A DNA stretch of 39,287 bases, taken from the IMG/VR virus record IMGVR_UViG_3300045994_000087; one strand, given 5' to 3'. Below the pieces are notes generated by a model. It saw nothing but the letters and a program-made list of their open reading frames with translations. It did not search any database and had not been told where the DNA came from. The DNA is from a virus. A program made the translations under genes and the position numbers. Shown piece by piece: positions 1-39,287 of this stretch (position 1 is its first letter; the number at the start of each line of letters is the position of its first letter).

Positions 1-127
1 GGCATCGCGCAGGATGGTACCGCTCAGGTTGGCATCGTACAGGTTAGCACCGCTCAGGTTGGCACCGCGCAGGTCGACATAGCTCAGGTTAGCACCGTGC
101 AGGTCGGCAACGCTCAGGTTAGCACCG
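1..127. repeat. Terminal overlap, identical to 39161..39287 (circular-contig signature) and also identical to internal 38906..39032
   Basis: Base-by-base comparison: ggcatcgcgcaggatggtaccgctcaggttggcatcgtacagg...cgctcaggttagcaccg occurs at all three places. Sequence diverges after position 127 (tac...) compared with 39033 (ctc...). Confidence 0.95.
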
Positions 128-540
128 TACAGGTTAGCACCGTACAGGTTAGCACCGCTCAGGTTGGCACCGCTCAGGTTGGCACCGTACAGGTTGGCAC
201 TGTGCAAGTTGGCACCGCGCAGGTCGGCAACGCTCAGGTTAGCACCGCTCAGGTCGGCACGGCCCAGGTCGGCACTGTGCAGGTTGGCACCGCTCAGGTC
301 GGCACCGTACAGGTTAGCACCGCTCAGGATGGCACCGCTCAGGATGGCACCGCTCAGGTTGGCATCGTACAGGTTAGCACCGCTCAGGTCGACACCGTAC
401 AGGTCGGCACCGCCCAGGTCGACACCAGCCGAGACCGCAGCCTCTAAGGTCAAGCGAATTGTGTTACCCTCAGCTTCATGTGCGAACATAATGTTGCCGT
501 TCACTAGACATTTTATTTCAATTTTCGTTTTCGTTTTCAT
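1..540 (-). CDS. Pentapeptide-repeat protein, N-terminal part. The ORF leaves the window at base 1 and continues in frame at 39160->38759 when the contig is circularised (~313 aa in total).
   Basis: My own minus-strand translation starts at ATG 540-538, preceded by a purine-rich GAGG (tgaggttaat). It reads [69 protein letters not shown]... and then runs as uninterrupted A-(D/N)-L-(S/Y/H/R)-G pentads to base 1 with no stop. It is absent from the ORF track because it has no stop inside the window. 540 nt is 180 codons, so it joins 39160 in the frame of track ORF 38759..39142. Confidence 0.85.
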   Translation of the reverse strand, partial: MKTKTKIEIKCLVNGNIMFAHEAEGNTIRLTLEAAVSAGVDLGGADLYGVDLSGANLYDANLSGAILSGAILSGANLYGADLSGANLHSADLGRADLSGANLSVADLRGANLHSANLYGANLSGANLSGANLYGANLYGANLSVADLHGANLSYVDLRGANLSGANLYDANLSGTILRDA

Positions 541-545
541 ATTAA

Positions 546-643
546 CCTCAGCAAGATTCGGTTAAAGCGTTATTGCGTTGACCGTGATTAGATTCTAGTG
601 CGCGCAAATGAGTTTGTAAACACCTATTTTCAACTTATTGCAA
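546..643 (-). promoter_or_regulatory. Promoter-leader-RBS cassette, copy A, upstream of the pentapeptide-repeat gene. It is homologous to 31537..31637.
   Basis: A 32-bp perfect match gtttgtaaacacctattttcaacttattgcaa (612..643 = 31606..31637). Further shared blocks are cgtgattagatt(c/t)tagtg, attgcgttg and cctcagcaag, in the same order in both copies. Confidence 0.8.
592..620 (-). promoter_or_regulatory. Sigma70-like promoter for the pentapeptide-repeat operon
   Basis: Minus strand reads TTTACA (620-615), a 17-nt spacer, then TAGAAT (597-592). The gene start at 540 lies about 45 nt downstream of the predicted transcription start. Confidence 0.6.
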
Positions 644-644
644 A

Positions 645-1520
645 TTATTTTGTGTCCATGTCCACATTACCACGGAAGCCGAGGAACACTGGGAAGCGCG
701 GTTTGTCCTTCACGCCAGTCGGTTGTGATTTGTATTTAACCACCTTGCCAATCAGGTTGTCGCCGGTTGTCCAAAACACTTGGCGCTGGTCAGCTGTGAA
801 CCCAGTCCCAATGTCAAACTCCACGCCAGTCTTTAGATCCTTAACCGTGAGGGCTCCCAACGTCTGTTTGCCGACCTTGCCCGCTTTATGGCTTGATCGC
901 TCGAGCTGTCCCAGTTCGTTACGCTTAGCCTCATTGGCATTGTGCTGGGCCTCTGAGAACCCAATGACCCTAGCCTCAGCATCAACAAAGCGCTTAACCT
1001 TAAGTAGCCATGCCTCCTTAGCAGTTGAGCGCCCTTGCTTGTATGGACCACCAGGATGGCGCAGCATCACGCCTTCGTAGCCAGCAGTAAGGTAGCTCTC
1101 CTCCCAGGAGAGGATGGTGTCCTCACGGTTCACCTTATCATGCTGTACCTGCACAAAGTGGGTATGACGCTTGGTCCGCTTGAAGGCCATGTCCAAGCGC
1201 TCAGCAAACCCAGCCTCGTGACTGAAGTCGTCAAACACATAGAACTTCACCTTGGGCTGACCTTCGATGCTCATGACGCCTGAGGTAGTCACTTGGAATA
1301 CGTCCTTGGCAATGGGTGAATCAACGATCAGCTCACCATCAAGGCCGTTGAACTCATGATGGCCGAACAGTTGCTGCACGTACTTGTTGGGGATCGGCTT
1401 CAGACTACGTCCAACAGCAACTCCGTCAATGATCAGACAGCGAATACCATCCAATTTTGGGCTGAGTAGCATTGGGAATGGAATGACTGGGCCGGCAGGT
1501 GACGCAAGCATTGGTTTCAT
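645..1520 (-). CDS. ATP-dependent DNA ligase
   Basis: Track ORF of 291 aa. Nucleotidyltransferase motif I KxDG is present (SPKLDGIRC). Size and layout match small phage ligases. The start overlaps the upstream stop as ATGA. Confidence 0.85.
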   Translation of the reverse strand: MKPMLASPAGPVIPFPMLLSPKLDGIRCLIIDGVAVGRSLKPIPNKYVQQLFGHHEFNGLDGELIVDSPIAKDVFQVTTSGVMSIEGQPKVKFYVFDDFSHEAGFAERLDMAFKRTKRHTHFVQVQHDKVNREDTILSWEESYLTAGYEGVMLRHPGGPYKQGRSTAKEAWLLKVKRFVDAEARVIGFSEAQHNANEAKRNELGQLERSSHKAGKVGKQTLGALTVKDLKTGVEFDIGTGFTADQRQVFWTTGDNLIGKVVKYKSQPTGVKDKPRFPVFLGFRGNVDMDTK

Positions 1521-3662: not shown

Positions 3663-5765
3663 TCAGTATTTTTGAAGCTTTTGCGCGCCGCTTTGCTTCT
3701 TCGCCCAAGTTTCGAGATGCTTTGTGATCAATTGAGGTTGTGAAGCGATCCACTCGTCTTGCTTGCGGACAGCGTAGTACCGACCTTGTGAACCATCAGA
3801 CAGACGAACGGGCTTCCCACTGCAGACCTGGCGGACTCCAGCACGTGCAAGTTCGCGGCCAAGCCCGTTGGCTGTAGTACCTGTTTTGCCTGCAGGATCG
3901 TAGAACTGGAGCAGCTCTTTTGACGTGAACAGGTCCTTGTCTAAGATGATCTCGCCGACGCGCAGGATATGGTCAGGAGTAGCCAAGAGGTTGCGCACCC
4001 AGCCTGCCAGATCAGACTGTACGTTTGCAATCATGCGCTCCTTAGCTGCTGTCTTAAAGGCAGGAGCCGCTGGGTTGAAGTCGCCGGTATCACGGTGCAG
4101 CAGGTAGTGGAATACCGCTTGGCTGCCACCAGTGTCGATCCAGAGGTCGTAGTCCATGTAGAACTCCTCAGGCATTGGGCCTGCTTGAACCTCATGGATG
4201 AAGAAGCGGCGGTCGTCGTCTTCAAGGAAGAACGAGTCTGGATGGTTGGCCGTGAAGAAGTAGTTGATGCAGTCAGGCACCACGTAGGTTGGCACATACT
4301 TGCCATTGACTCGGAGTTCGCGCTGCGTGATGAGCTTCTTTAAGAAGTCGGCATCAGCTCGCTTGTTGGATCCTGTCACATCGTCGCCCATGACGAACTG
4401 CTTGCCCTCAGCCCATTCATTGAAGCTGTTGTGCAAGTCCATCTGGCTAATCTCGGTGAAGTTCTGCCCGTAAATACGACCCAGCGAGTAGCCGATCAAC
4501 GACTTACCTGTGCCGTGGCGGATACCATGAAGGACTGCAGAGCTAAACAACTTCGTGCCAGGATGTTGAAGCGGGTACGCACACCAGTTGAGGAACCACT
4601 CCATAGCCTCTGGCTCTGAGCCACTGAAGATGTGAGCAACCAGTTCAAGGAATGGAGTGACGTCGTCCTCAACAGGCTCAACACCCCAGCCTGGCCAGAT
4701 GTTGAACATTGGGCGAGGTTCTGCAATGAACCGGCCATCCCCTGGCTTGTACGTGATCTTCGTGACCTCTGTGCGGAGCGGCCACTTGAGCCATGCAGCT
4801 GCTGCTGAGACCGCCTTGAAGGAGACTGAGCCGTCTTGTTTGAGACTACGCTCGTGGTAATTCAGAGGTGCCTGTAGATGCTCTTTGAACGCTGATGGTG
4901 ATGCCTTGAACCGAGTGTCTTGGTCGACAATGAGACCAGGGTCTTGAACGTAGACATACTTCTCATTGAGTCCCCAAAGTGGTGCGGTCAAGCCTAGGGG
5001 CTCGGCTTCAGTGAGTAAGCCACGAAACATCGAAACGGCTGATGGTCCTGCATGGACAAGGAAGTCGTCAAGACCCACCTTCGCAAGGCCGGGCAGTTGA
5101 GGCAGACTGACGAGATGGACAAAGCAACCGCGGCGATGAAGCTCTTCACCAAGCTCACGGAGTGCTGAGCACACCATTGGGTTGGTTTTGTAGTCGCTAT
5201 CGAAGCAGATGTAGACGTTGCGCTTCAACCAAATGACTGAGTCCAGACTGGGAAGCCATGTGATGCCGAGGCGGTGACTGCGCCAGTTGTACACTCCACC
5301 CAGCCCGATGGTGGGGAAGCCTTCCTTGCAGGCTTTGGCGGCTTTGAGCTCGCCTTCAGTAAGGATGATAGGCTGGTCTGGGTCACTGAGAATGGCTGGC
5401 CAGTCTTGGTTGCCAGGATAGTAAGCGACTGGTGCGGTGTTAGGTTCTTGTACGTAGCGGACTGGCTTCTTGTCGGTCAGTGCTGAGAAGTCTGTTGGCG
5501 TCTCAAGATACCTGAGCCGGTAAAACGGCTTGGAGCCTGGCCAGTCTGAGATTGGAAACCCTGCAGGATCGAGGTACTCGATCTTTAAGCTGCAGAGCTG
5601 CTTAAATGCTTGATGATGTTGAGCTGTCTGCTGGGCACCGAGTGCCGTCATTTTCAAGAGCTTTGCATCTTCGAGAGTGAGTCCACTTCCTTTGAGCTTT
5701 GCTTCTACTAGTGCAGTTGCCTTATGATCAGCAGCCGGGGCTGCTTTCTTTCTTGTCGTTGCCAT
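3663..5765 (-). CDS. DNA primase-helicase (TOPRIM-like N-terminal half plus SF3/D5-type P-loop NTPase)
   Basis: Track ORF of 700 aa. TOPRIM-like acidic motifs TEGELKA and FDSDYK are present. Walker A is GIRHGTGKS and Walker B-like is FVMGDD. No zinc-finger or AEP primase motif was recognised. Confidence 0.75.
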   Translation of the reverse strand: MATTRKKAAPAADHKATALVEAKLKGSGLTLEDAKLLKMTALGAQQTAQHHQAFKQLCSLKIEYLDPAGFPISDWPGSKPFYRLRYLETPTDFSALTDKKPVRYVQEPNTAPVAYYPGNQDWPAILSDPDQPIILTEGELKAAKACKEGFPTIGLGGVYNWRSHRLGITWLPSLDSVIWLKRNVYICFDSDYKTNPMVCSALRELGEELHRRGCFVHLVSLPQLPGLAKVGLDDFLVHAGPSAVSMFRGLLTEAEPLGLTAPLWGLNEKYVYVQDPGLIVDQDTRFKASPSAFKEHLQAPLNYHERSLKQDGSVSFKAVSAAAAWLKWPLRTEVTKITYKPGDGRFIAEPRPMFNIWPGWGVEPVEDDVTPFLELVAHIFSGSEPEAMEWFLNWCAYPLQHPGTKLFSSAVLHGIRHGTGKSLIGYSLGRIYGQNFTEISQMDLHNSFNEWAEGKQFVMGDDVTGSNKRADADFLKKLITQRELRVNGKYVPTYVVPDCINYFFTANHPDSFFLEDDDRRFFIHEVQAGPMPEEFYMDYDLWIDTGGSQAVFHYLLHRDTGDFNPAAPAFKTAAKERMIANVQSDLAGWVRNLLATPDHILRVGEIILDKDLFTSKELLQFYDPAGKTGTTANGLGRELARAGVRQVCSGKPVRLSDGSQGRYYAVRKQDEWIASQPQLITKHLETWAKKQSGAQKLQKY

Positions 5766-6751: not shown

Positions 6752-8082
6752 TAGACCTCTCCCACCAAAAGGACATGGAGCGCTGGTATCCACTCACTGA
6801 GCACTCTGTTCAAACCGACTTAGTCAATGACAAGGTGCGGTTTAAGGTGGTACCAGCAGGTCGTCGGTCTGGCAAGACTGAGAGAGCCAAGCGCTTCGTT
6901 GTACGTGAGGCCATGCGTGAACCAGGTCCTTACTTCGTTGCTGCTCCCACTCGAGACCAAGTCAAGAGGATCTACTGGTCTGACCTCAAGCGCCTCGCCT
7001 TTACCTCTGTGCTCGGTGACCGCTCAGTCAGTGAGTCTGAACTCCAGATCCGTCTACCTAATGGCAGCACCATCAGCCTTGTCGGTCTTGACCAACCTCA
7101 ACGTATGGAGGGTGTGCTCTGGATCGGCGGCGTTATCGATGAGATCGCAGACGTGCGTGAAGGTGCATGGCAGGAGAACATCAGCCCTGCCCTTGACACG
7201 TTCAACCCACTGAAGCCAGGCTACCGTCCATGGTGCTGGTTGATCGGTGTTCCTGACGGCTTGAACCACTACTACGAGATGGCTGAGTACGCTCGGACCA
7301 GCGGCGATGCTGATTGGAAGCTGTACACTTGGAAGTCAGCAGACATCCTTCCACCTGACGTGATTGAAGCCGCCAAGCGCCGCATGTCGCCCCGTCAGTA
7401 CCGCCAGGAGTATGAGGCCAGCTTTGAGACTGCATCGGGCCGAGTGTATGAGGACTACGGTCCTTGGAACCACACGAAGGAAGTCATCAAGAGCCATGAG
7501 CAGATCATGTGGCATCATGACTTCAACTTCACGCCCATGAGCTCAGGCATCGGTGTACGTCGTGGCAATGACTTCTACATCCTTGACGAGATCATCCTGA
7601 CCAGCGCAACGTCGCGCCAGTCGGCTATTGAGTTCGTTGAGAAGTATAAGAACCACGCCAACCGCAAGGTCGTCATCTACGGTGACCCTGCAGGACGCGC
7701 CGGTGAGAAGCATGGCCATGCCTCTGACTACACCGAGATGGAACAGGTGCTGCGCGCCAACAACTGGCAGGTCGAGCGTCGTGTCAAGCCTGCTGCTCCT
7801 GCCATCAAGGACCGTCAGAACTCTGTGCGCGCCAAGATCAGGAATGCCAAGGGCGAGACCAGTCTGTTTGTGAACATCGACAAAGCGAAGTATGCCCACA
7901 AGGGTCTGGCCACGGTTCAGATCAAGAAGGGTAGCACCTTCCTTGAAGAAGACAGCGACTATCAGCACATCACCACGGCCATCGGCTATTGTGTTGACCA
8001 TGAGTGGCCACTGCGTCCTGACCGCCCGAACGTCGATGCCAAGCCCGTCGCTTCCATCAACCATTTCAATTCAAGGAACTAG
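6748..8082 (+). CDS. terL: Terminase large subunit
   Basis: Track ORF of 444 aa. Walker A-like GRRSGKT and Walker B GGVIDEIAD are present. It sits directly upstream of the portal gene. Confidence 0.85.
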   Translation: MIDLSHQKDMERWYPLTEHSVQTDLVNDKVRFKVVPAGRRSGKTERAKRFVVREAMREPGPYFVAAPTRDQVKRIYWSDLKRLAFTSVLGDRSVSESELQIRLPNGSTISLVGLDQPQRMEGVLWIGGVIDEIADVREGAWQENISPALDTFNPLKPGYRPWCWLIGVPDGLNHYYEMAEYARTSGDADWKLYTWKSADILPPDVIEAAKRRMSPRQYRQEYEASFETASGRVYEDYGPWNHTKEVIKSHEQIMWHHDFNFTPMSSGIGVRRGNDFYILDEIILTSATSRQSAIEFVEKYKNHANRKVVIYGDPAGRAGEKHGHASDYTEMEQVLRANNWQVERRVKPAAPAIKDRQNSVRAKIRNAKGETSLFVNIDKAKYAHKGLATVQIKKGSTFLEEDSDYQHITTAIGYCVDHEWPLRPDRPNVDAKPVASINHFNSRN

Positions 8083-12529: not shown

Positions 12530-12844
12530 ATGAAGAACGCAACAATGCTCTACAAGGCCCCAGGACCTCACGAGATCCATGGCGGACACTTCGACTACGT
12601 CATAGTTGATGCAGATGAAGAAGGTGCCATCGACGCAGCCTTGGCTGGTGGCTGGTTTAAGACTACACCAGAGGCAAAGGACGCAAAGGACGCAAAGGAC
12701 GCAAAGGACGCTGAAACTAATAATTCACTGCCAGCCACACGCGCAGAATTAGAACAGAAGGCAGGTGAGTTGGGCATTAAGTTTAACGATAAGATGTCCG
12801 ACAAAAAGCTCGGTGACCTGATTACGGCAACATTGGAGAATTGA
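12530..12844 (+). CDS. Hypothetical protein (104 aa) with an (AKD)4 repeat and a SAP/HeH-like C-terminus
   Basis: Track ORF. An AGGAG RBS lies 7 nt upstream. The sequence includes MLYKAPGPHEIHGGHFDYVIVD... and a C-terminal ATRAELEQKAGELGIKF helix-extended-helix-like segment. Confidence 0.7.
   Translation: MKNATMLYKAPGPHEIHGGHFDYVIVDADEEGAIDAALAGGWFKTTPEAKDAKDAKDAKDAETNNSLPATRAELEQKAGELGIKFNDKMSDKKLGDLITATLEN
12674..12709 (+). repeat. Perfect 9-bp tandem repeat gcaaaggac x4 (in frame, encodes AKD x4)
   Basis: Read directly from the sequence. Confidence 0.95.
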
Positions 12845-22216: not shown

Positions 22217-22837
22217 ATGACTACGACACAAGTTGCACCGCCATACCCAATCTTCACTGACGTTGATGGAACGCCCTTGAATGATGGATATATCTACCTT
22301 GGCTTCGTCAACACCAATCCTGAACTTCAACCGATACCAGCTTATTGGGACTCAGCATTGACCATCCCAGCAGCCCAACCGATTCGCACAGTGAATGGTT
22401 ACCCATCGCGCCAGGGTTCACCGGCCCAGTTATACACCAATGGCACATTTTCCATTACCATACGCAACAAGGTAAAGGCGGTCGTCCTCTATTCTTCAGT
22501 TGGTTACTCTGTCAACCCATCATCAGTCGCAAGCAACTCAGACATTGTGACGGTACTTGCCAATATGGGCAGTATCAATGCTGCAGTAGCAAGCGCCGCA
22601 GTAGTAAACGCCGCAGTAGTAAACGCCGCAGCGAGTGCGACTGCGGCTGGGAATAGTGCCACCGCTGCGGCCGCTAGTGCCACCTACTTAAATAGTCTAG
22701 TACGGGTAAATGGCAGCGTCATATCTGCCAATTTAACCATACCCACAACCTCGAATGCATTGTCAGTTGGGCCGATCACTGTCCCTGCTGGTGTCAATGT
22801 AACTGTTCCCACTAACTCTAATTGGAGAATCTTGTAA
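22217..22837 (+). CDS. Tail fibre protein (conserved N-terminal anchor domain, variable C-terminus)
   Basis: Track ORF of 206 aa. The N-terminus PYPIFTDVDGTPLNDGYIYLGFVNTNPELQPIPAYWDSALTIPAAQPIRT is a pattern I recognise from many podovirus fibre and tailspike N-termini. An AAGGAG RBS is present. Confidence 0.65.
   Translation: MTTTQVAPPYPIFTDVDGTPLNDGYIYLGFVNTNPELQPIPAYWDSALTIPAAQPIRTVNGYPSRQGSPAQLYTNGTFSITIRNKVKAVVLYSSVGYSVNPSSVASNSDIVTVLANMGSINAAVASAAVVNAAVVNAAASATAAGNSATAAAASATYLNSLVRVNGSVISANLTIPTTSNALSVGPITVPAGVNVTVPTNSNWRIL
22580..22631 (+). repeat. 15-bp tandem repeat gccgcagtagtaaac, ~3.5 copies with a degenerate first copy, in frame (AAVAS-AAVVN-AAVVN-AA)
   Basis: Read directly from the sequence. 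Perfect copies are at 22595-22609 and 22610-22624. Confidence 0.85.
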
Positions 22838-27540: not shown

Positions 27541-28323
27541 TTAGTGCTCCCACCAACGAAGGTCGTCACCGACCTTGCTGTCACGCAAAGCTGCCAAGAC
27601 CCTCATCAAGTGCGCCGCATCATTCCAGAGTACCGCCTCAGTCTCAGGTTGTTCAAGCACCTCACTGGCCAAGCACAACTTGGCATCCGCCCAGTTGGTC
27701 TCGTACAGATGGCTTGAAGCTGCCGTCAAGAAGAGACGCCCAGGCTTCACGGCATCATCGAACTTCCGATGCTCGTTCAGCAGACCACAGACCAGGTGGC
27801 TGAGCATGCTGAAGTTGAAGACATCATACGGAACACCAAGCCAGACATCACTTGACCGCATGAACACATGCGTATTGAGCTTGCCACTGCGGATGCTGAA
27901 GAAGATGGCCACGGTGCACGGCACATCTTTGGTCTGCGGTGGGCACTCACGCCAGATGGTCAGGCCAGCTTGACGGCTATCTTCATCGGCCATCAGCTTC
28001 TCGATGATGTAGGGCAGTTGAGTTTTGATCTTTGGACCATACGCCCCAAAGAAGCGTTCACCGTCATCGCTGAAGTCCTTGATGCGGCTGTTGTAAGGCG
28101 AGATGGTCTCGACACGGTCGTCTCCAGACAGGATCCAGAAAGCTTCAGCCGCCATGAACTTGTAGCTCAGACTGCGGTCAGGGATGCGGAGCACTGGGCG
28201 GCGCATGTCAACCACCATGGTGCGTTGTGGCATCTCACGTGTCATCTTGCCGCGTGGCGCAACTGGATCGCCGTTGGTCAGGATGTCATTGATGGTGTCG
28301 AGCCAAGTTTTTGAGAAGTCCAT
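27541..28323 (-). CDS. ThyA-family pyrimidine C5 (hydroxy)methylase, predicted dCMP-specific
   Basis: Track ORF 27541..28329. ATG 28323 has an AAGGA 7 nt upstream. AAEAFWILSG matches the ELLWFLxG block. The catalytic Cys lies in DVPCTVAIFF. FMRSSDVWLGVPYDVFNFS aligns to E. coli ThyA QRSCDVFLGLPFNIASY and places Asp where ThyA has Asn177. Confidence 0.75.
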   Translation of the reverse strand: MDFSKTWLDTINDILTNGDPVAPRGKMTREMPQRTMVVDMRRPVLRIPDRSLSYKFMAAEAFWILSGDDRVETISPYNSRIKDFSDDGERFFGAYGPKIKTQLPYIIEKLMADEDSRQAGLTIWRECPPQTKDVPCTVAIFFSIRSGKLNTHVFMRSSDVWLGVPYDVFNFSMLSHLVCGLLNEHRKFDDAVKPGRLFLTAASSHLYETNWADAKLCLASEVLEQPETEAVLWNDAAHLMRVLAALRDSKVGDDLRWWEH

Positions 28324-28325
28324 GA

Positions 28326-28697
28326 TCAATCCTTTGTGTGAGCGCCAGCAAAGAAGCCAGCATAGTTAATGATGTCCAGCGCCGTGTCACGTAGCCCTTC
28401 GAAGTTTGCGTCTTGGCCACGCATCTCTTTGAGGACCAGTGAGTTAAAGCGCTGTGACTTCGTATGGAGCATCTGAGCATAGCTCACAGCCCCAAATGGG
28501 AAGTACGACGAGCGGTCGATCTTGTGTGGGTCCATGTCCGCAGCACCTTGGTTGTAGTCCTGGCTCTTGCGAACACAGAGCAGAGCTGCTTCGGCCAGAG
28601 CGCCTGGATGGCCACCACGAGACTGGAGTTCTTCCAGCAGTTCAACGGTCGAGCATTCTGCCAACTGAGTGGCGGTCAGCAGTGATTTGGTTTTCAT
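28326..28697 (-). CDS. DUF1599-like protein (function unknown)
   Basis: Track ORF 28326..28721. ATG 28697 has an AAGGA 7 nt upstream. KSQDYNQGA...AQMLHTKSQRFNSL...NFEGLRDTALDIINYAGF fits the K-x-x-DY...K-x-x-R...E-x-x-x-D-x-x-x-D-x-x-NY pattern I associate with DUF1599. Confidence 0.5.
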   Translation of the reverse strand: MKTKSLLTATQLAECSTVELLEELQSRGGHPGALAEAALLCVRKSQDYNQGAADMDPHKIDRSSYFPFGAVSYAQMLHTKSQRFNSLVLKEMRGQDANFEGLRDTALDIINYAGFFAGAHTKD

Positions 28698-28714
28698 ATT
28701 AGTTCCTTTACGAG

Positions 28715-29107
28715 TTACCATGACAAAATTTCCTTCAGACGAGATTCAGGACCTACCCAGCCTGCCGGCTTCTTGACATCAAACGCGCTGCCGCGTTTTG
28801 AGTCTTCAGCCTTGGCCACACGTACCTTGGCCATATTAGCAGAATGAACTGCATGCATGCCGGCGTGCCACTGAGCCGGGCTAATGCCAGCAAAGAGTGC
28901 CGTACCATAGGCTACGTAAGCCAGGTCGAGCAGAGCGTCAAAGGCCCCCACCTTGTCACCAGTAGCCAAAGCCTCTTTGAGTTCATCGAGTTCTTCTTGG
29001 AGGAACTTGACGCGAAAGTCCTGCGCGGCAGGGTCTTGCATGAGCATGTCAGTCGTGCCGTTGGGCAGGCCAAACTTCTCATGGAACTTAGTGACATTTT
29101 CAATCAT
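28715..29107 (-). CDS. All-alpha NTP pyrophosphohydrolase (MazG/HisE-like)
   Basis: Track ORF of 130 aa. KFHEKFGLP...RVKFLQEELDELKEA...AFDALLDLAYVAYGTA...VHSANMAKV is typical of phage MazG-like enzymes, with EExxE and D-x-x-x-D acidic helices. The start overlaps the methyltransferase stop as TGATG. Confidence 0.7.
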   Translation of the reverse strand: MIENVTKFHEKFGLPNGTTDMLMQDPAAQDFRVKFLQEELDELKEALATGDKVGAFDALLDLAYVAYGTALFAGISPAQWHAGMHAVHSANMAKVRVAKAEDSKRGSAFDVKKPAGWVGPESRLKEILSW

Positions 29108-29940
29108 CAGAACGGCGCTCCTTTCGTGGCTTTGCGGACAACAGGCTTGGCAGGTTTGCCATCAGCTGCTTTACGGCACACCCACAGGTTGTTGCGGGCA
29201 TGGTCAGGGTAGAGACTGCCAAAGATGTTGCTGATGGCGTCACTGTCGAAGTACTGTTCAAGGCCTTGGCGCACCAACTTGATGGCGTCCAGCATCTTCT
29301 TGCCGTCCATGCCAGGGATCTGAGGCTCAACCTTGCCAATGTGCTTGATGTCCATGAAGGTACCGAAGCGACGCTCAATGATATAGCCAGCCTTCTCAAT
29401 GGATGCCTGCAGCTCAGGCACGGTGTATTCGTGGATGTGGTTCTTGGCATGACGCTTGCCGTCATAGACAGGAGTCGAGAGCAACAAAACACCACCCGGC
29501 TTGGTGGCAGCAAACATGGCTTTGAGCAGATTGGTGCCATGCTCAAACTTCATGTGTTCAATGACCTCGTAATTGACGACGACGTCGAAGCCCTCGGGAC
29601 GTGCCTTCAGAAGTTCCTTGTAGCGCTCAACAAAGTTGAACTCGCCATGAAATGTCAGGCGTTGGGAAGCGGACGGCTTCAGCTTGTTCAGATCGACACC
29701 AGTGTAGTGGTTGACGTGAGCAGCTGCGCCGCCAGTCAGGATCTTGCAGAGCGGTTTGTCTTCGCCGCAACCGACTTCAAGAACGTTGTGCTTGGCCGTG
29801 ATGAAGCGACGAGCAAAGCTCCAGCGCCAGAAGTGGGCTGAGTAGTCACGGTGAAGCGTGCGGCCATGGCCAGCCTCATGCAGTTGTGTGGTGTCGTACT
29901 CGCGGTTGTCGCGGGTAATCTCTTTAGTGGACTTGGTCAT
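29107..29940 (-). CDS. Class I SAM-dependent methyltransferase with a short Lys/Pro/Ala-rich C-terminal tail
   Basis: Track ORF 29107..30069. ATG 29940 has an AAGGAA RBS and avoids overlap with the upstream gene. Motif I is VLEVGCGEDKP, the post-I acidic residue is in YTGVDL, and there is a Methyltransf_11/23-like block DVVVNYEVIEHM...KPGGVLLLSTP. Confidence 0.7.
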   Translation of the reverse strand: MTKSTKEITRDNREYDTTQLHEAGHGRTLHRDYSAHFWRWSFARRFITAKHNVLEVGCGEDKPLCKILTGGAAAHVNHYTGVDLNKLKPSASQRLTFHGEFNFVERYKELLKARPEGFDVVVNYEVIEHMKFEHGTNLLKAMFAATKPGGVLLLSTPVYDGKRHAKNHIHEYTVPELQASIEKAGYIIERRFGTFMDIKHIGKVEPQIPGMDGKKMLDAIKLVRQGLEQYFDSDAISNIFGSLYPDHARNNLWVCRKAADGKPAKPVVRKATKGAPF

Positions 29941-30005
29941 AATAATTCCTTTGCGTGATGGATGCCATTGGTGAGGCGCCTTGTCGGTGGTACCTCGGTG
30001 CCGTG

Positions 30006-30665
30006 CTACTTGGCCACCTTGGCTTCTGGCGGATTGGCACCAGACTTCTTCAGGTGGTTGCGGTACCATTTGACGTAGCCGCGCTTCTTCTCATCCAGAC
30101 CGAACTCGGCTTGGACCTTCTCGAAGATTTGGTCGTCCGTCAATTTGCCCGACATAATCAGATCTTGGAACATCTGAGCTGCCGACATCTTCTTTTCGCC
30201 AGTCTTAGCAGGTTTATCTGCCGGCTTGGCTTTCGCCACTGGGTCGATGGCACGACGTCCTGCGTGGACTTCGGTGGGTTTTGCTGCCGCCTTCTTTGCG
30301 ACAGGCTTCACTGCTTTGACGGCAGCCGGCTTTTCAGCCACGGTTTGCTTCTTGATAGTAGCCATTTCAAGCTCCTGTTTGCTAACGTTGATGATTTGGC
30401 CAAGGTAGTCCATGGCCTCCTTTGTTGCCCCGAGGGTCTGGCTGTAGTTCACAAAGAGCTGACATGCCTTCTCCACCGGGTACCCTTCCATCGGAGTGAA
30501 CCGCTGGTCGAATGACTCCGCTGATGTTGCATGGACATCAAGGCCCATGATAATGTCCAGCGGGATAAACTTAACGAGGTCTACACTACGCTCTACTTGG
30601 ATGCAGGTACGCCTGTTGCGGTCGTAGCATGCCATGATAGCCGGTGCTTGTTTTTTAGTTGCCAT
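30006..30665 (-). CDS. Hypothetical protein (219 aa) with a K/A/P-rich linker and a C-terminal domain paralogous to 31097..31528
   Basis: Track ORF 30006..30707. ATG 30665 has a GGAGAG RBS. The shared block is AGRRAIDPV...SGK...F-LD--KK-Y--WYR---K--G. Confidence 0.65.
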   Translation of the reverse strand: MATKKQAPAIMACYDRNRRTCIQVERSVDLVKFIPLDIIMGLDVHATSAESFDQRFTPMEGYPVEKACQLFVNYSQTLGATKEAMDYLGQIINVSKQELEMATIKKQTVAEKPAAVKAVKPVAKKAAAKPTEVHAGRRAIDPVAKAKPADKPAKTGEKKMSAAQMFQDLIMSGKLTDDQIFEKVQAEFGLDEKKRGYVKWYRNHLKKSGANPPEAKVAK

Positions 30666-31096: not shown

Positions 31097-31528
31097 TCAG
31101 GCTTCTTTGGGGAGCAGACCAGTGCGCTTCATTTCGCAGCGATACCACGTTGGGTAGTGCTTCTTAGAATCATCAAGGTTGAACTGCTGTTTGAGAGTTT
31201 CCCAGACCTCTTGGTTGGTCTTGCCAGACAGGATCAGTTCACGCGCTGTTGCAGAGATACCAAGTTTCTTTGGCTTGGCTTCAACAACTGGGTCGATAGC
31301 ACGACGACCAGCCTTCACAACTTTTGGCTCTTTGGCTGCAACAGGCTTGGCTTCAGCCTTAGGTGCAGGGGTTTTCAACGACTCGAGGTGGGCAGCTGCA
31401 GCACCAAGGTTGCACTCGAACTTGTCGCCCACCTTTGTGATAAACAGGTTGTAGTCACGAGCTTGAAGGCCGAGCTTACGCAAGGCGGAAGTGGCAGAGT
31501 CACGGGCGGTGTAGGTCTTGGTTGTCAT
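31097..31528 (-). CDS. Hypothetical protein (143 aa) with a K/A/P-rich linker and a C-terminal domain paralogous to 30006..30665
   Basis: Track ORF 31097..31567. ATG 31528 has a GAGGA 8 nt upstream and fits the promoter at 31586-31614. The sequence includes AGRRAIDPVVEAKPKK...LILSGKTNQEVWETLKQQFNLDDSKKHYPTWYRCEMKRTG. Confidence 0.65.
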   Translation of the reverse strand: MTTKTYTARDSATSALRKLGLQARDYNLFITKVGDKFECNLGAAAAHLESLKTPAPKAEAKPVAAKEPKVVKAGRRAIDPVVEAKPKKLGISATARELILSGKTNQEVWETLKQQFNLDDSKKHYPTWYRCEMKRTGLLPKEA

Positions 31529-31536
31529 GATGTGGT

Positions 31537-31637
31537 CCTCAGCAAGGTTTGTTCGAACAAGCACCATTGCGTTGTTCGTGATTAGATTTTAGTGTATCAC
31601 GATGGGTTTGTAAACACCTATTTTCAACTTATTGCAA
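31537..31637 (-). promoter_or_regulatory. Promoter-leader-RBS cassette, copy B (homologous to 546..643)
   Basis: See copy A. The 32-bp perfect core is at 31606..31637. Here too the upstream gene's stop codon lies 1-2 nt beyond the core. Confidence 0.8.
31586..31614 (-). promoter_or_regulatory. Sigma70-like promoter
   Basis: Minus strand reads TTTACA (31614-31609), a 17-nt spacer, then TAAAAT (31591-31586). Confidence 0.6.
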
Positions 31638-37128: not shown

Positions 37129-37980
37129 TCAGTACTTGCGTGTGGAACCGCGCTTAGCCGCAGGTTTAGCCACAGGTTTTGCTGCTGGCTTTGCTGCTGG
37201 CTTTGCTGAGGCACGACTGCCCCGCTTAGGAGCCGGTGCGACTTCTTCTGCAGGTTGGTACGGGAAGTCGATGGTCGACTTTGCTTCTTCATGGCGTTGC
37301 ATGATGGCACTCATGAACTCGTCAGGGATGTTCATGATCGGCTCGAAGACAACCTTGAACTGGGTCTTCGGATCAGGCACAACCTTGACCTTGGTCACGA
37401 TGCCAAATGGAGGACGGCGCAGAGCACCAGCTACCTGCTTGACAAAGCTGGCGTAACCCTTGACAGATGTGACCGGCAGCTTCATAAAGCCAATGGCTGT
37501 CGAAGCGAAGTGGTCCTCATCTTCAAACATCACGAACTTGCCTGCTTGGTCGAAGTTACCTGCTGGGATCATCGCCAGACGACGAGTCTCACGAGCAGCT
37601 TTGCCGCGACCGGTATCAGAAGAGCCCCATTCGCAGACCTCGCTTTCACTGCACAGTTGGCCAGCAAATTCAGGGTCTGAGTTCTCGTGCCATGTCATGG
37701 TCTTCTCATCACGGCCGAACGCAAAAGCAGTCGGTGTCTGAGGAGTGTCCGGATCATATTTGCCTTCGTAGTAGGTGGTCTCGAAGATGCTGTCCAAGAT
37801 GACGACTGCCATCTGGTTGCCAGGCAACGGAGCATCTTGCCAGGACAGGATGCCACCTTTGGCGCTGAAGAATTGCCCGCCTCCAGTGTTGGCTTCCATG
37901 CCGGCAGCGACTTCAGCTTGTTTGGCGAGTTCTTCATCCCAACGGACGAGGGCGGTGGTTTGTGGTTTCTTAGTTGCCAT
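37129..37980 (-). CDS. Conserved early protein (283 aa) with an (AKPA)n basic C-terminal tail; possible DNA-binding or SSB-like role
   Basis: Track ORF. An AAGGAA RBS is present and a strong terminator follows. The C-terminus is SAKPAAKPAAKPVAKPAAKRGSTRKY. I recognised no catalytic motif, so the functional guess is by position only. Confidence 0.6.
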   Translation of the reverse strand: MATKKPQTTALVRWDEELAKQAEVAAGMEANTGGGQFFSAKGGILSWQDAPLPGNQMAVVILDSIFETTYYEGKYDPDTPQTPTAFAFGRDEKTMTWHENSDPEFAGQLCSESEVCEWGSSDTGRGKAARETRRLAMIPAGNFDQAGKFVMFEDEDHFASTAIGFMKLPVTSVKGYASFVKQVAGALRRPPFGIVTKVKVVPDPKTQFKVVFEPIMNIPDEFMSAIMQRHEEAKSTIDFPYQPAEEVAPAPKRGSRASAKPAAKPAAKPVAKPAAKRGSTRKY

Positions 37981-38063: not shown

Positions 38064-38459
38064 TTAAACTTTGTTGATGGAGACGGACACAGCGTTGAAG
38101 TGCTCAACGCCTGGAACTTCCTTGCCTGCTTCCCAACGCTCTTTGATGGCCACGTCAGTCAGGCGCTTTTGCATGAGGTCAAAACTGCCAGTCTTCTTGA
38201 CATACTTGTAGAAGGCTTCCCAGTCCTTGACCTGAGGAACCTGCTTGGTCACAACAGTGACGCGGGCCAGCTTACCAGCCACACCAGACGCTTCGGACTT
38301 TGGCAGGTTATCGATGATGTGGTTCTTGAGGGCGGTCTCTTCAGACGTGATCTCGTCAACCTTCTTTTGTTCGGTCAGGCGCTTGTTGCGCAGCTCGAAC
38401 AGTTTATCCGCGCAGGCGCCGAGCGCCTTGGGGAACTTGTATTTAACTTCTGTTGCCAT
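38064..38459 (-). CDS. Hypothetical protein (131 aa)
   Basis: Track ORF. An AAGGAG RBS is present. The N-terminal half is coiled-coil-like. Confidence 0.6.
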   Translation of the reverse strand: MATEVKYKFPKALGACADKLFELRNKRLTEQKKVDEITSEETALKNHIIDNLPKSEASGVAGKLARVTVVTKQVPQVKDWEAFYKYVKKTGSFDLMQKRLTDVAIKERWEAGKEVPGVEHFNAVSVSINKV

Positions 38460-38486: not shown

Positions 38487-38711
38487 TTAGCCGCCAGTTT
38501 TAACCCAGTACTTTCCTTGCTCGGTATATTCCTGACCAAGACCAGTACCAAGCTTTCCAATCCCAGGTCCAAGATTGAAACATGTTTTGCACATGTGTGC
38601 CCAAGGACCACGTTTTGTTTTGGCGTCGTAGAAAACCTCGTTGATCGGTCCATCACACGTCTCACAAAATCCAGGAACTGGACTAATCCAGCGTAGTTGC
38701 GTTTTAGACAT
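38487..38711 (-). CDS. Zinc-ribbon protein (74 aa)
   Basis: Track ORF 38487..38762. ATG 38711 has an AAGGAG 8 nt upstream and gives MSKTQLRWISPVPGFCETCDGPINEVFYDAKTKRGPWAHMCKTCF, with CxxC...CxxC. Confidence 0.65.
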   Translation of the reverse strand: MSKTQLRWISPVPGFCETCDGPINEVFYDAKTKRGPWAHMCKTCFNLGPGIGKLGTGLGQEYTEQGKYWVKTGG

Positions 38712-38758
38712 TTTATAACTCCTTAACAAGGTTTGTTGTGGTCGTTGACCGCAGGATG

Positions 38759-39287
38759 TCACCGCAGGATGGCACCGCTCAGGTTGGCATCGCGCAGGAT
38801 GGTATCGTACAGGTTGGCACCGCTCAGGTTAGCACCGCTCAGGTCGGCACCGTACAGGTCGGCACCGCCCAGGTCGACACTGTGCAAGTTGGCACCGCTC
38901 AGGTTGGCATCGCGCAGGATGGTACCGCTCAGGTTGGCATCGTACAGGTTAGCACCGCTCAGGTTGGCACCGCGCAGGTCGACATAGCTCAGGTTAGCAC
39001 CGTGCAGGTCGGCAACGCTCAGGTTAGCACCGCTCAGGTTGGCATCGCGCAGGATGGTATCGTACAGGTTGGCACCGCTCAGGTTAGCACCGCTCAGGTC
39101 GGCACCGTACAGGTTAGCACCGCTCAGGTTGGCACTGTGCAAGTTGGCACCGCTCAGGTTGGCATCGCGCAGGATGGTACCGCTCAGGTTGGCATCGTAC
39201 AGGTTAGCACCGCTCAGGTTGGCACCGCGCAGGTCGACATAGCTCAGGTTAGCACCGTGCAGGTCGGCAACGCTCAGGTTAGCACCG
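38759..39287 (-). CDS. Pentapeptide-repeat protein, C-terminal part. Bases 39161-39287 duplicate 1-127, so the unique part is 38759..39160.
   Basis: Track ORF 38759..39142 ([18 protein letters not shown]... pentads). The same frame stays open up to the window end. The stop codon is at 38759-38761. Confidence 0.85.
38906..39032. repeat. Internal copy of the 127-bp terminal sequence
   Basis: Identical by eye to 1..127 and to 39161..39287. It lies exactly 255 bp upstream of 39161. Confidence 0.9.
39161..39287. repeat. Terminal overlap copy (same as 1..127)
   Basis: Exact 127-bp identity with the window start. Confidence 0.95.

Follow-up and report, generated by a model that had tools for sequence, protein, structure and literature searches.

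The window, the whole 39,287-nucleotide stretch of viral DNA analysed here (IMG/VR record IMGVR_UViG_3300045994_000087), encodes a protein that is predicted to be a phage pentapeptide-repeat beta-helix protein. Sequence comparison places it in a widespread family of modular phage proteins, which are built from an N-terminal cap (N-cap), a solenoid that differs in length between members and an interchangeable C-terminal 'GC(Q/K/F)' domain; the window copy lacks the last of these. The anatomy of the gene, i.e. the gene itself, its fold class, its truncation, its family tie, the conservation of its promoter and its place in a hot spot, is near certain. That the protein acts in counter-defence or host interaction, with the binding surface and expression timing proposed below, is the reading we prefer, although with somewhat less than even confidence.

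The gene is split by the ends of the contig. On the minus strand the reading frame begins with an ATG at position 540, preceded by a Shine-Dalgarno GAGG at 549-546, and runs through 180 codons down to position 1 (1..540; N-cap 424-540, pentads from 423 downwards). It resumes at 39160 in frame and in pentad register, and its 3' part (38759..39160, minus strand, codons 181-313) ends with ...ANLSGAILR and a stop codon at 38759-38761. The two ends of the window are identical over exactly 127 bp (1-127 = 39161-39287), the terminal copy (39161..39287) being a circular-assembly overlap within the internal repeat of the gene; the k-mer size of the assembler was deduced from this overlap. The join across the contig ends is backed by the order of ligase, pentapeptide-repeat gene and Gam-like gene in relatives. 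The product is at least 313 aa long and consists of a 39-aa N-terminal cap (MKTKTKIEIKCLVNGNIMFAHEAEGNTIRLTLEAAVSAG) followed by 274 aa of pentads. The preliminary description of a long pentapeptide-repeat gene split at the contig junction, with a short cap and A(D/N)LxG pentads, was thus confirmed, also by a match to Pfam PF00805 (E=1.9e-96, in 8 stretches). Open reading frames on the plus strand of the repeat region (97-447, 164-565 and others) are repeat artefacts.

The array contains 55 uninterrupted pentads in register (54 full pentads and the four-residue AILR), with A at position 1 in 45 of 54 and L at position 3 in all 54. Members of the pentapeptide-repeat superfamily have at least 8 contiguous pentads of the consensus A(D/N)LXX, and the window protein has 55. 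Tandem Repeats Finder reported 15/30-nt periodicity across 1-419 and 38765-39287. As four pentads form one coil, 55 pentads correspond to ~13.7 turns (~66 Å), and the '~54-turn' helix described earlier is in fact one of ~14 turns. The earlier estimate of ~313 aa holds as a minimal solution, but not as a fixed length. The 127-mer of the window ends recurs at 38906-39032, and the array includes a 255-bp (85 aa, 17 pentads) tandem duplication, the first copy of which lies at 39033-39160 plus 1-127 and the second at 38778..39032 on the minus strand. Stretches of 155 and 88 bases are the same, letter for letter, in both copies. Since the internal identical repeat of 155 bases is longer than the 127-bp end overlap, 313 aa is the minimal length and the true length is 313+85n. 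The window array is the longest in the family (55 pentads, compared to 2-46 in other members). In-frame differences in repeat number are also found between near-identical isolates (phage L/ST64T, RW/GB2A and 24/CP-T1).

Structure prediction, proposed earlier as a check, gave a beta-helix fold at a pLDDT of 86-90 (AlphaFold2; 86 for the sequence by itself and 89.7 when an alignment was supplied), with one bridge residue per 5 residues. The N-cap is predicted to form a beta-hairpin (residues 4-11 and 17-24) and a helix (28-37) at pLDDT 90-96. Foldseek matched the model with probability 1.00 to HetL, Np275/276, QnrB1, MfpA and AlbG, and also to the designed beta1; all matches were pentapeptide-repeat structures, apart from these only uncharacterised viral pentapeptide-repeat proteins, of which Caulobacter phage RW gp16 was the best (TM 0.63). 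The TM-scores were low (0.2-0.6) due to register ambiguity and length, and therefore only the fold class is used here. The repeats of the window protein are nearly ideal consensus, and the closest solved sequences are the designed 'beta1' solenoids and Np275/276. Charges are even on the faces of the solenoid, and one face is mildly Tyr-rich (7 Y).

The family set comprised phrog_31265, phrog_31567, phrog_20532 and phrog_37032, and included the relatives L004, L014, L016 and L029. The window protein carries the N-cap motif KIEIK.R..G.VLF.HEAE.N...LTLEAAV, its cap being 56-67% identical to those of the relatives; phrog_31265 matches its residues 6-165, and phrog_37032 was also matched. A cap profile search returned 290 proteins, and the window cap alone matches 43 representative clusters, none of the family representatives being more than 67% identical to it. 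A homology search with the whole protein was swamped by ~500-aa cyanobacterial pentapeptide-repeat proteins and was uninformative. A literature search gave no paper in which N-cap pentapeptide-repeat proteins are ascribed a function. The C-terminal globular domain (75-100 aa, with an invariant Gly-Cys as in 'GCQR' or 'GCFFG') is found in 7 of 7 complete relatives and 12 of 12 family representatives, i.e. in all 19 other complete members. Its absence from the window copy, in which only 4 residues follow the last full pentad, was missed in the preliminary description. Directly after the stop codon lies a partial second operon leader (CGGTCAACGACCACAACAAACCTTGTTAAGGAGTTATAAA; 38712..38758, minus strand), and a 13-nt direct duplication (ATCCTGCGGTGAC / ATCCTGCGGTCAAC) extends across the stop codon. 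The duplicated leader and the 13-nt duplication mark the recombination junction that truncated the gene.

The gene occupies a variable slot between an ATP-dependent DNA ligase gene (645..1520, minus strand) and a Gam-like/Gp157-like gene (38064..38459, minus strand), which are its conserved upstream and downstream boundaries; the order ligase, promoter, gene, Gam-like gene is as in relatives. The same slot holds a separate cassette, p91 (phrog_29767; 38487..38711, minus strand), which encodes a 74-aa CxxC...CxxC protein. We considered p91 as a detached C-terminal domain and ruled this out, as 21 of 21 homologues are standalone proteins of 63-85 aa without a pentapeptide domain; in L021, L022, L031 and L032 the p91 homologue is placed elsewhere. 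Among relatives with 60-93% identical ligase, the pentapeptide-repeat gene is present in 14 and absent in ~13, in which the slot is either empty or filled by unrelated small genes. The nearest cultured phages, AXL3 and PW916 (PolA 67%), lack the gene, and Stenotrophomonas phage AXL3 has otherwise the same synteny. Between relatives whose ligase, Gam-like and PolA proteins are 92-97% identical, the N-cap is only 56-70% identical, suggesting that the gene diverges or is exchanged fast. The locus is a presence/absence hot spot in a common family of phages, and the gene is an optional cassette that changes fast. When known phages were searched at the DNA level, the sole match was to a segment of a portal gene, with 74% identity. 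For the same allele, an exact 31-mer scan of IMG/VR gave no match and a degenerate scan gave only 52-62% identical caps. No family match was obtained in an Rfam search and no tRNA in a tRNA search.

The intergenic region upstream of the gene (541..644, minus strand) contains a sigma-70-type promoter (-35 TTTACA at 620-615, 17-nt spacer, -10 TAGAAT at 597-592) as well as a conserved leader (CTAATCACGGTCAAC...CTTGCTGAGG) and the GAGG at 549-546. In an alignment of 11 relatives the promoter hexamers are invariant and the spacer is variable. The gene is, as had been described, the first one behind a promoter-like element, which is phylogenetically conserved, and it lies directly upstream of replication genes, with Gam-like, PolA, exonuclease and helicase genes following. 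The promoter is not, however, a dedicated one: relatives without the pentapeptide-repeat gene have the same promoter and leader directly ahead of the Gam-like gene. A second copy of the promoter element is found at 31615-31571. Neither is the gene the first of the early arm, as primase, ThyX, DnaJ-like and ligase genes are located upstream on the same strand. Based on the sigma-70-type promoter, we infer that the gene is expressed early.

The only functional precedent is gp60 of Vibrio phage 24, and it comes from one preprint. Deletion of gene 24_60, which encodes this pentapeptide-repeat protein, greatly raises protection by Sucellos, a RexAB-like abortive-infection system that gp60 has been proposed to counter, and escaper phages carry Y112R and N110/N115D (bioRxiv 10.1101/2024.07.02.601686). 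The N-x-Y-x-x-N spacing of these residues would fit surface positions of an ANLYGAN repeat. The protein aligns with that of L016 across the repeats and the C-terminal domain (BLASTP E=2e-18), while its homology to the window protein is confined to the repeats. Since gp60 counters a RexAB-like system and is homologous to the proteins of the relatives, anti-defence is the best guess for the function of the window protein. This role was the better of those suggested in the preliminary description, given the hot-spot locus and the homology of the relatives' proteins to gp60, and it remains inferred only. It is possible that the C-terminal domain, which gp60 keeps, is the active part. The homologue in a P22-like phage is the gene next after ral in the PL operon and precedes kil, arf, erf and abc2 (anti-RecBCD). 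Arguments from gene neighbourhood at hot spots carry little weight. When two Staphylococcus phages were bred to infect more hosts, both acquired a mutation in their pentapeptide-repeat gene (PMC8065394). No match was obtained with the PADLOC models, which cover defence and not counter-defence systems.

DNA mimicry had been suggested on the basis of the fold, and it could operate in two ways. The protein might be a decoy in the style of Ocr or ArdA, an acidic rod that sits in the groove where a host nuclease (type I R-M, BREX-type or RecBCD-like) binds DNA. The solenoid of the window protein has 24 acidic and 8 basic residues distributed evenly over four faces, the gene is the first behind an early-type promoter and adjoins a Gam-like end-protection gene, and the P22-like homologue adjoins ral and is near abc2 and lar. 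However, a net charge of -16 over ~66 Å, or ~-1.2 per 4.8-Å coil, is roughly 40% of the charge density of B-DNA, and the relatives at the same locus are neutral or basic, so that acidity is not a family trait. The net charge of the solenoid ranges from -16 in the window protein to +3 in L004 and +2 in gp60, with relatives at +3 to -9, which makes the suggested mimicry doubtful. Neither McbG nor QnrB, both of them pentapeptide-repeat proteins, inhibited BREX, the EcoKI results being for ArdA and ArdB only (PMC7261183), and thus the pentapeptide fold alone gives no Ocr-like activity. Nor is there a sequence or fold tie to Ocr or ArdA, as the significant PDB and Pfam matches were either pentapeptide-repeat beta-helices or repeat-driven chance matches, and we regard a decoy as distinctly unlikely. 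A mimic of the T-segment of the Qnr/MfpA/AlbG type is in our view highly improbable. Its target would be the gyrase or topoisomerase IV of the host, and its effect either to shield the enzyme from poisons or to adjust supercoiling for phage replication. The fold class is the same, with QnrB1, MfpA and AlbG among the Foldseek matches, the window protein is acidic (pI 4.58, net -14 to -16), the gene lies within the replication gene cluster, and phages are known to encode gyrase inhibitors, namely Igy and Gip (PMC10886550). Against this, the testable features (thresholds, loops and C-terminal helix) all fail. The NCBIfam models penta_rpt_Qnr and MfpA scored 105.5 and 97 bits against cut-offs of 240 and 360, respectively, and the Qnr subfamilies all scored 65-107 bits against cut-offs of 425-500. 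A match above cut-off to NCBIfam 'Alr5209' was discounted, because it is a 113-position repeat model summed over 5 stretches. In Qnr the loops A and B interrupt the helix and are required for activity (PMC3089455); the window protein, with 55 pentads in perfect register in a 274-aa array without insertion, has no Qnr-type loops. It also has no C-terminal dimerisation helix, as it ends inside a pentad and its only predicted helix is that of the N-cap (residues 28-37). The best sequence and structure matches were consensus or cyanobacterial pentapeptide-repeat proteins and not Qnr, close relatives dispense with the gene, the charge of the solenoid is not conserved (L004 +3, pI 8.3), and a repeat number of 2 to 55 within the family is a poor fit to a size-matched T-segment mimic. 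There is no evidence that the window protein is a Qnr-like gyrase protector.

Two further explanations concern the integrity of the gene. It may be a truncated and decaying remnant, from which the C-terminal effector domain was deleted when a cassette of leader and p91 recombined into the gene, and in which the solenoid is tolerated and expands by slippage or unequal recombination. The reading frame does stop at the duplicated-leader junction, with the 13-nt direct duplication over the stop, all 19 of the other complete members of the family keep a C-terminal domain, relatives can do without the gene, and the near-identity of the two 255-bp copies indicates that the duplication is recent. We nevertheless consider a remnant unlikely. 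All 55 pentads are in frame, with the A/L core positions 83-100% conserved, and the N-cap, start codon and Shine-Dalgarno sequence are intact. The longest array of the family looks more like the result of selection for length than of decay. In addition, the escape mutations of gp60 appear to lie on the surface of the solenoid, which is thus probably functional. Alternatively, repeats in short reads may have been collapsed or mis-joined, and the true gene would then be longer and perhaps contain a C-terminal domain. The internal repeat (155 nt) exceeds the end overlap, the contigs of 8 of the 14 relatives end inside the gene, most of the top database matches to the N-cap are fragments of 41-93 aa, several of them labelled 'partial' at the source, and pentapeptide-repeat proteins are 26 times commoner in long reads than in assemblies (PMC9238414). 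The repeats of 24_60 could likewise be resolved only by PCR and Sanger sequencing (bioRxiv 10.1101/2024.07.02.601686). An assembly artefact in the 3' end or the length of the gene is still very unlikely, as frame and pentad register are unbroken over the join, neither the stop codon nor the leader-p91 junction falls within the long repeats, both being in unique sequence, and the flanking synteny is that of the relatives; the logic of the assembly graph permits extra 85-aa units, not a hidden C-terminal domain. As a practical warning, pentapeptide-repeat genes break short-read assemblies, overlaps of 'circular' ends can arise inside such a gene, and reported lengths are lower bounds.

In the counter-defence reading that we prefer, the window protein would be a monomeric, uninterrupted right-handed quadrilateral beta-helix of ~14 coils, capped by the N-terminal beta-hairpin and helix. 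Its gene is a dispensable, rapidly exchanged cassette, promoter-proximal in a conserved sigma-70-type operon that otherwise opens with the Gam-like gene, followed by DNA polymerase, exonuclease and helicase genes. The window copy lost its C-terminal domain where recombination joined it to a duplicated leader, and its solenoid has grown by tandem duplication. The protein would be made early from a promoter used by the host RNA polymerase, and residues exposed on the solenoid (pentad positions 2, 4 and 5) would bind a host protein and so put it out of action. The likeliest target would be a sensor or effector in a system of the abortive-infection type, in line with what has been proposed for the homologous gp60 of Vibrio phage 24. 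A wider and distinctly speculative extension, to which we give little credence, is that proteins with N-cap, solenoid and swappable C-terminal domain form a large unrecognised class of phage counter-defence proteins against abortive-infection sensors (RexA-like), carried as promoter-proximal cassettes and rapidly tuned, as in contingency loci, by recombination in pentad number and surface residues. If so, the window copy with its 55 pentads and no C-terminal domain would demonstrate that inhibition takes no more than the solenoid.

Pentapeptide-repeat genes occur in ~1% of sequenced phage genomes (486 of 50,697 records). The present locus offers a natural experiment, in which near-identical phages with and without the gene share one conserved promoter, and it is tied by homology to the one pentapeptide-repeat protein of a phage for which a phenotype (anti-Sucellos) has been reported. 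Being a natural solenoid-only variant, the window copy could tell whether the helix or the C-terminal domain carries the activity.

Compared to known systems, the window protein shares with Qnr, MfpA, AlbG and McbG the right-handed quadrilateral beta-helix and an overall acidic surface, whereas it has ~14 coils in one chain and these have 8-10 per subunit of a dimer. It belongs with the N-cap proteins of phages and prophages. Ralstonia phage PQ43W gp58 and Caulobacter phage RW gp16 (phrog_31265, phrog_31567, phrog_20532) share (M)K(I/F)EIK.R..G.VLF..E....L...EAAV.A.A(N/D)L with it, and the N-cap proteins are similarly variable in solenoid length and early or accessory in position. The complete members inspected have, unlike the window protein, a C-terminal domain of 75-100 aa (types A, B and others). 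The P22-like orf232 (ST64T/L; Salfasec13b_046) is likewise an accessory gene of an early operon, near ral, kil and abc2. It is a member of phrog_37032, which the window protein also matches, and it shows an in-frame 15-bp (one-pentad) polymorphism between near-identical phages. It differs in having another N-terminus, in keeping a type B C-terminal domain and in belonging to a temperate lambdoid phage. The gp60 protein, finally, resembles the window protein as a phage pentapeptide solenoid encoded in a replication/early block, polymorphic in repeat number and hard to assemble, and it is homologous to the proteins of the relatives at the window locus (type B C-terminal domain, phrog_37032/31567). 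It has ~8 annotated pentads compared to 55, a different N-terminus (MNINDVLTQH...), a C-terminal 'RAGCQ' domain that the window protein lacks, and a slightly basic solenoid (+2) in contrast to the -16 of the window protein.

The pentapeptide-repeat (PR) gene is real, and of an ordinary kind. Its product belongs to a common phage pentapeptide-repeat family that is modular and functionally obscure, and the gene is an optional promoter-proximal cassette in the replication operon. Two features are particular to the window copy: the C-terminal globular domain (C-domain) has been lost where the gene meets a leader, and the solenoid is expanded, with an uncertain copy number. The window ends are identical over exactly 127 bp (1-127 = 39161-39287). 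On the minus strand the gene starts with ATG at 540, behind a GAGG at 549-546, and runs for 180 codons to position 1 and off the end; with the overlap removed, frame and pentad register are unbroken from 39160 to the stop at 38759-38761. The circular join is sound, since relatives keep the order ligase, PR gene, Gam-like gene. The 313-aa product consists of a 39-residue non-repeat N-terminus (N-cap) and 274 residues in 55 uninterrupted pentads, i.e. 54 full ones and a four-residue AILR. In the full pentads position 1 is A in 45/54, position 2 N (33) or D (15), position 3 L in 54/54, position 4 S, Y, R or H, and position 5 G (35) or D (9). The product matches Pfam PF00805 at E=1.9e-96. The preliminary description was right about a gene split by the contig junction and about its N-terminus, but not about ~54 turns: four pentads form one coil of the quadrilateral beta-helix, at 4.8 Å per coil in solved pentapeptide-repeat structures, and the protein therefore has ~13.7 turns and a computed length of ~66 Å.

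Tandem Repeats Finder reported 15/30-nt periodicity at both window ends, and the plus-strand ORFs listed over the region were rejected as by-products of the repeats. Other short tandem repeats, perfect or near-perfect, lie at 12674-12711 (9 nt x4.2), 22569-22631 (15/30 nt x3.3/2.1) and 37178-37208 (12 nt x2.6), inside structural-region ORFs and a 283-aa early gene. AlphaFold2 predicted the solenoid from the single sequence with pLDDT 86 (residues 40-313 mostly above 85) and, with 61 cap-containing homologues aligned, the N-cap as a beta-hairpin (4-11, 17-24) and a helix (28-37) with pLDDT 90-96. Foldseek returned only pentapeptide-repeat structures from the PDB and uncharacterised viral pentapeptide-repeat proteins from BFVD, the best being a 356-aa Caulobacter RW-type protein. 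The closest solved sequences are the designed consensus 'beta1' solenoids and Np275/276, so the repeats are near ideal.

The length of the protein is a lower bound. A third copy of the terminal 127-mer lies at 38906-39032. Numbered along the gene, bases 414-568 are identical to 669-823 and bases 587-674 to 842-929, an internal tandem duplication of 255 bp (85 aa, 17 pentads) whose identical core of 155 nt exceeds the 127-bp end overlap. The overlap would correspond to the k-mer size of the assembler. The minimal traversal of the assembly graph is the path Y-R-X-R-Z, and therefore the true length is 313+85n aa. A partly mis-assembled gene is a rival reading of the window copy. Pentapeptide repeats of this kind break assemblies: such proteins were enriched 26-fold in long reads over assemblies (PMC9238414), and PCR and Sanger sequencing were needed to resolve the homologous gene of Vibrio phage 24 (bioRxiv 10.1101/2024.07.02.601686). 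The top database matches to the N-cap are mostly 41-93-aa fragments, several labelled 'partial' by the source. Eight of the 14 gene-bearing related IMG/VR contigs terminate within the gene (3' ends of loci L001, L003, L006, L010, L013, L021, L022 and L024), and therefore completeness and circularity calls in this phage group are probably biased by this gene alone.

The window represents a ~39.2-kb phage genome whose portal is P22-like. Judged by DNA polymerase, the cultured phages closest to it are Stenotrophomonas phage AXL3 and Pseudoxanthomonas phage PW916, at 67% identity. From upstream to downstream, the minus strand carries primase/helicase (3663-5765), ThyX (2251-2913), two DnaJ-like genes (1816-2127 and 1517-1819), ATP-dependent DNA ligase (645-1520), a 104-bp intergenic region, the PR gene, a 74-aa CxxC gene (38487-38711), a Gam/Gp157-like gene (38064-38459) and, in order, the 283-aa gene, PolA, a PD-(D/E)XK exonuclease, a 3'-5' exonuclease, a DksA-like gene and a helicase. 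The PR gene therefore lies in the middle of the replication block and does not head the early arm. The overlapping DnaJ-like genes both match the DnaJ CXXCXGXG zinc-finger region below the Pfam cut-off, the second (1816-2127) has a J domain match above it, and AXL3 is annotated with the same arrangement (DnaJ domain-containing protein). Besides ThyX, the genome encodes a second member of the thymidylate synthase family, which is ThyA-like, along with a MazG-like pyrophosphohydrolase, a hydrolase and a methyltransferase-like gene (2251-2913, 27541-28329, 28326-29107, 29107-30069), which may form a nucleotide or DNA-modification module as in AXL3.

A promoter scan placed TTTACA-17-TAGAAT at 620-592 (minus). 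Across 11 aligned relatives, GTTTACA and TA(G/T)(A/G)AT are invariant or nearly so, with the 17-nt spacer free to vary, and the downstream leader (CTAATCACGGTCAAC ... CTTGCTGAGG) terminates in the start codon of the first gene, whichever is present. In three relatives without the PR gene (L005, L015, L026) the Gam-like gene is first behind it. This argues for a genuine, conserved operon promoter and for the PR gene as a cassette inserted promoter-proximally; the promoter proposed earlier thus stands, its dedication to this gene does not. Nearly the same AAGGAGTTAT(A/C)AAATG ribosome-binding motif precedes each cassette. A second promoter of this type, GTTTACA-N17-TAAAAT-CTAATCACG, lies at 31571-31615 (minus) between the helicase gene and ORF 31097-31567; the chance expectation for such a match is zero, which suggests a phage-specific promoter/leader family marking operon starts.

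With the ligase as query, 59 related viral contigs were gathered. Among relatives with ligases 60-93% identical, 14 carry an N-cap PR gene in the slot, and in ~13 the slot is either a ~100-nt gap or filled by unrelated ORFs or by insertions reaching 3.4 kb; AXL3 shares the synteny but lacks the gene. The window N-cap has only 56-70% identity to caps from relatives that match the window at 92-97% in the ligase, Gam-like and PolA proteins, pointing to either much faster evolution than the neighbours or exchange. A conserved 65-67-aa ORF (MTDTERLDAIGEHGLCISRHDV...), absent from the window, overlaps the ligase stop codon and lies ahead of the promoter in L007, L009, L011, L013 and L021-L024 (~6864-7064), and is a second variable element at the ligase boundary.

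Complete relatives' proteins at the slot (153-315 aa) all terminate in a 78-90-aa globular domain, of type A (...GPIGSRCAYF..ITDKGLRFDAGCQRQITREVF...HGDN.HAKEY; phrog_20532) or type B (...ITEGFMRIGCQRHSHEKW...; phrog_31567/37032), and one of these was present in 12/12 full-length representatives found by the cap alone. Ralstonia phage PQ43W, Caulobacter phage RW and many metagenomic proteins share the N-cap with the window protein but have other C-domains. The window protein, unlike these complete relatives and representatives, has no C-domain, and its array is the longest (55 pentads vs 2-46 in the family members compared). In the 3' flank of the gene the operon leader is partly repeated (CGGTCAACGACCACAACAAACCTTGTTAAGGAGTTATAAA-ATG), and this second copy now stands ahead of the 74-aa gene. 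The leader duplicate, with a 13-nt direct duplication (ATCCTGCGGTGAC / ATCCTGCGGTCAAC) spanning the stop, occupies 38712-38770 (minus) and looks like the scar of a cassette insertion or truncation. The stop codon lies at the junction with the duplicated leader, and we read the duplications as recombination between pentad and leader that would have removed the 3' end of the gene; a decaying remnant is a rival reading. The 74-aa gene was rejected as a detached C-domain, as all its homologues are standalone. Its product (phrog_29767) has a CxxC...CxxC pattern with weak DksA/TraR zinc-finger similarity (E=0.04). The gene occupies the PR slot only in the window genome; L021, L022, L031 and L032 have it at other sites, among them one ~3 kb upstream of the ligase. 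It is a mobile small gene.

The preliminary description had suggested a DNA-mimic effector acting on topoisomerases, restriction or other defences. A Qnr-like topoisomerase mimic is the least likely reading, as all curated Qnr/MfpA models score far under cut-off and both the loops and the dimerisation helix are absent. An Ocr-like DNA decoy, a further rival, would agree with the acidity of the window protein (pI 4.58, solenoid net -16, evenly distributed on four faces), but the charge density is only ~40% of that of DNA, and charge ranges from +3 (L004, pI 8.3) to -9 in relatives at the same locus and is +2 in phage 24 gp60; acidity is therefore not a family property. BREX is not inhibited by the pentapeptide-repeat proteins McbG and QnrB (PMC7261183). 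By analogy with gp60, the solenoid surface would bind a host protein or act in counter-defence, and this is the best-supported mechanism, although we hold it tentatively, at somewhat less than an even chance.

The only experimental data found on function come from V. cholerae phage 24, where all escapers from the RexAB-like abortive-infection system Sucellos carried Y112R and N110/N115D in the pentapeptide-repeat gene 24_60; deletion of 24_60 made Sucellos far more protective, and the authors proposed an anti-defence protein (bioRxiv 10.1101/2024.07.02.601686). The deposited gp60 aligns at 35% identity (E=2e-18) with the L016-type protein from a related contig, over both repeats and type B C-domain. 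The mutated residues have an N-x-Y-x-x-N spacing that would suit an ANLYGAN repeat, which would place them at solvent-exposed solenoid positions in a longer corrected gene. As supporting context, the near-identical isolates L/ST64T, RW/GB2A and 24/CP-T1 differ at few sites, and in-frame changes in pentad number are among these. Two Staphylococcus phages that had been bred to widen their host range had each gained a mutation in their pentapeptide-repeat gene (PMC8065394), and in a P22-like phage the homologue immediately follows ral within the PL operon, with kil, arf, erf and abc2 (anti-RecBCD) downstream of it.
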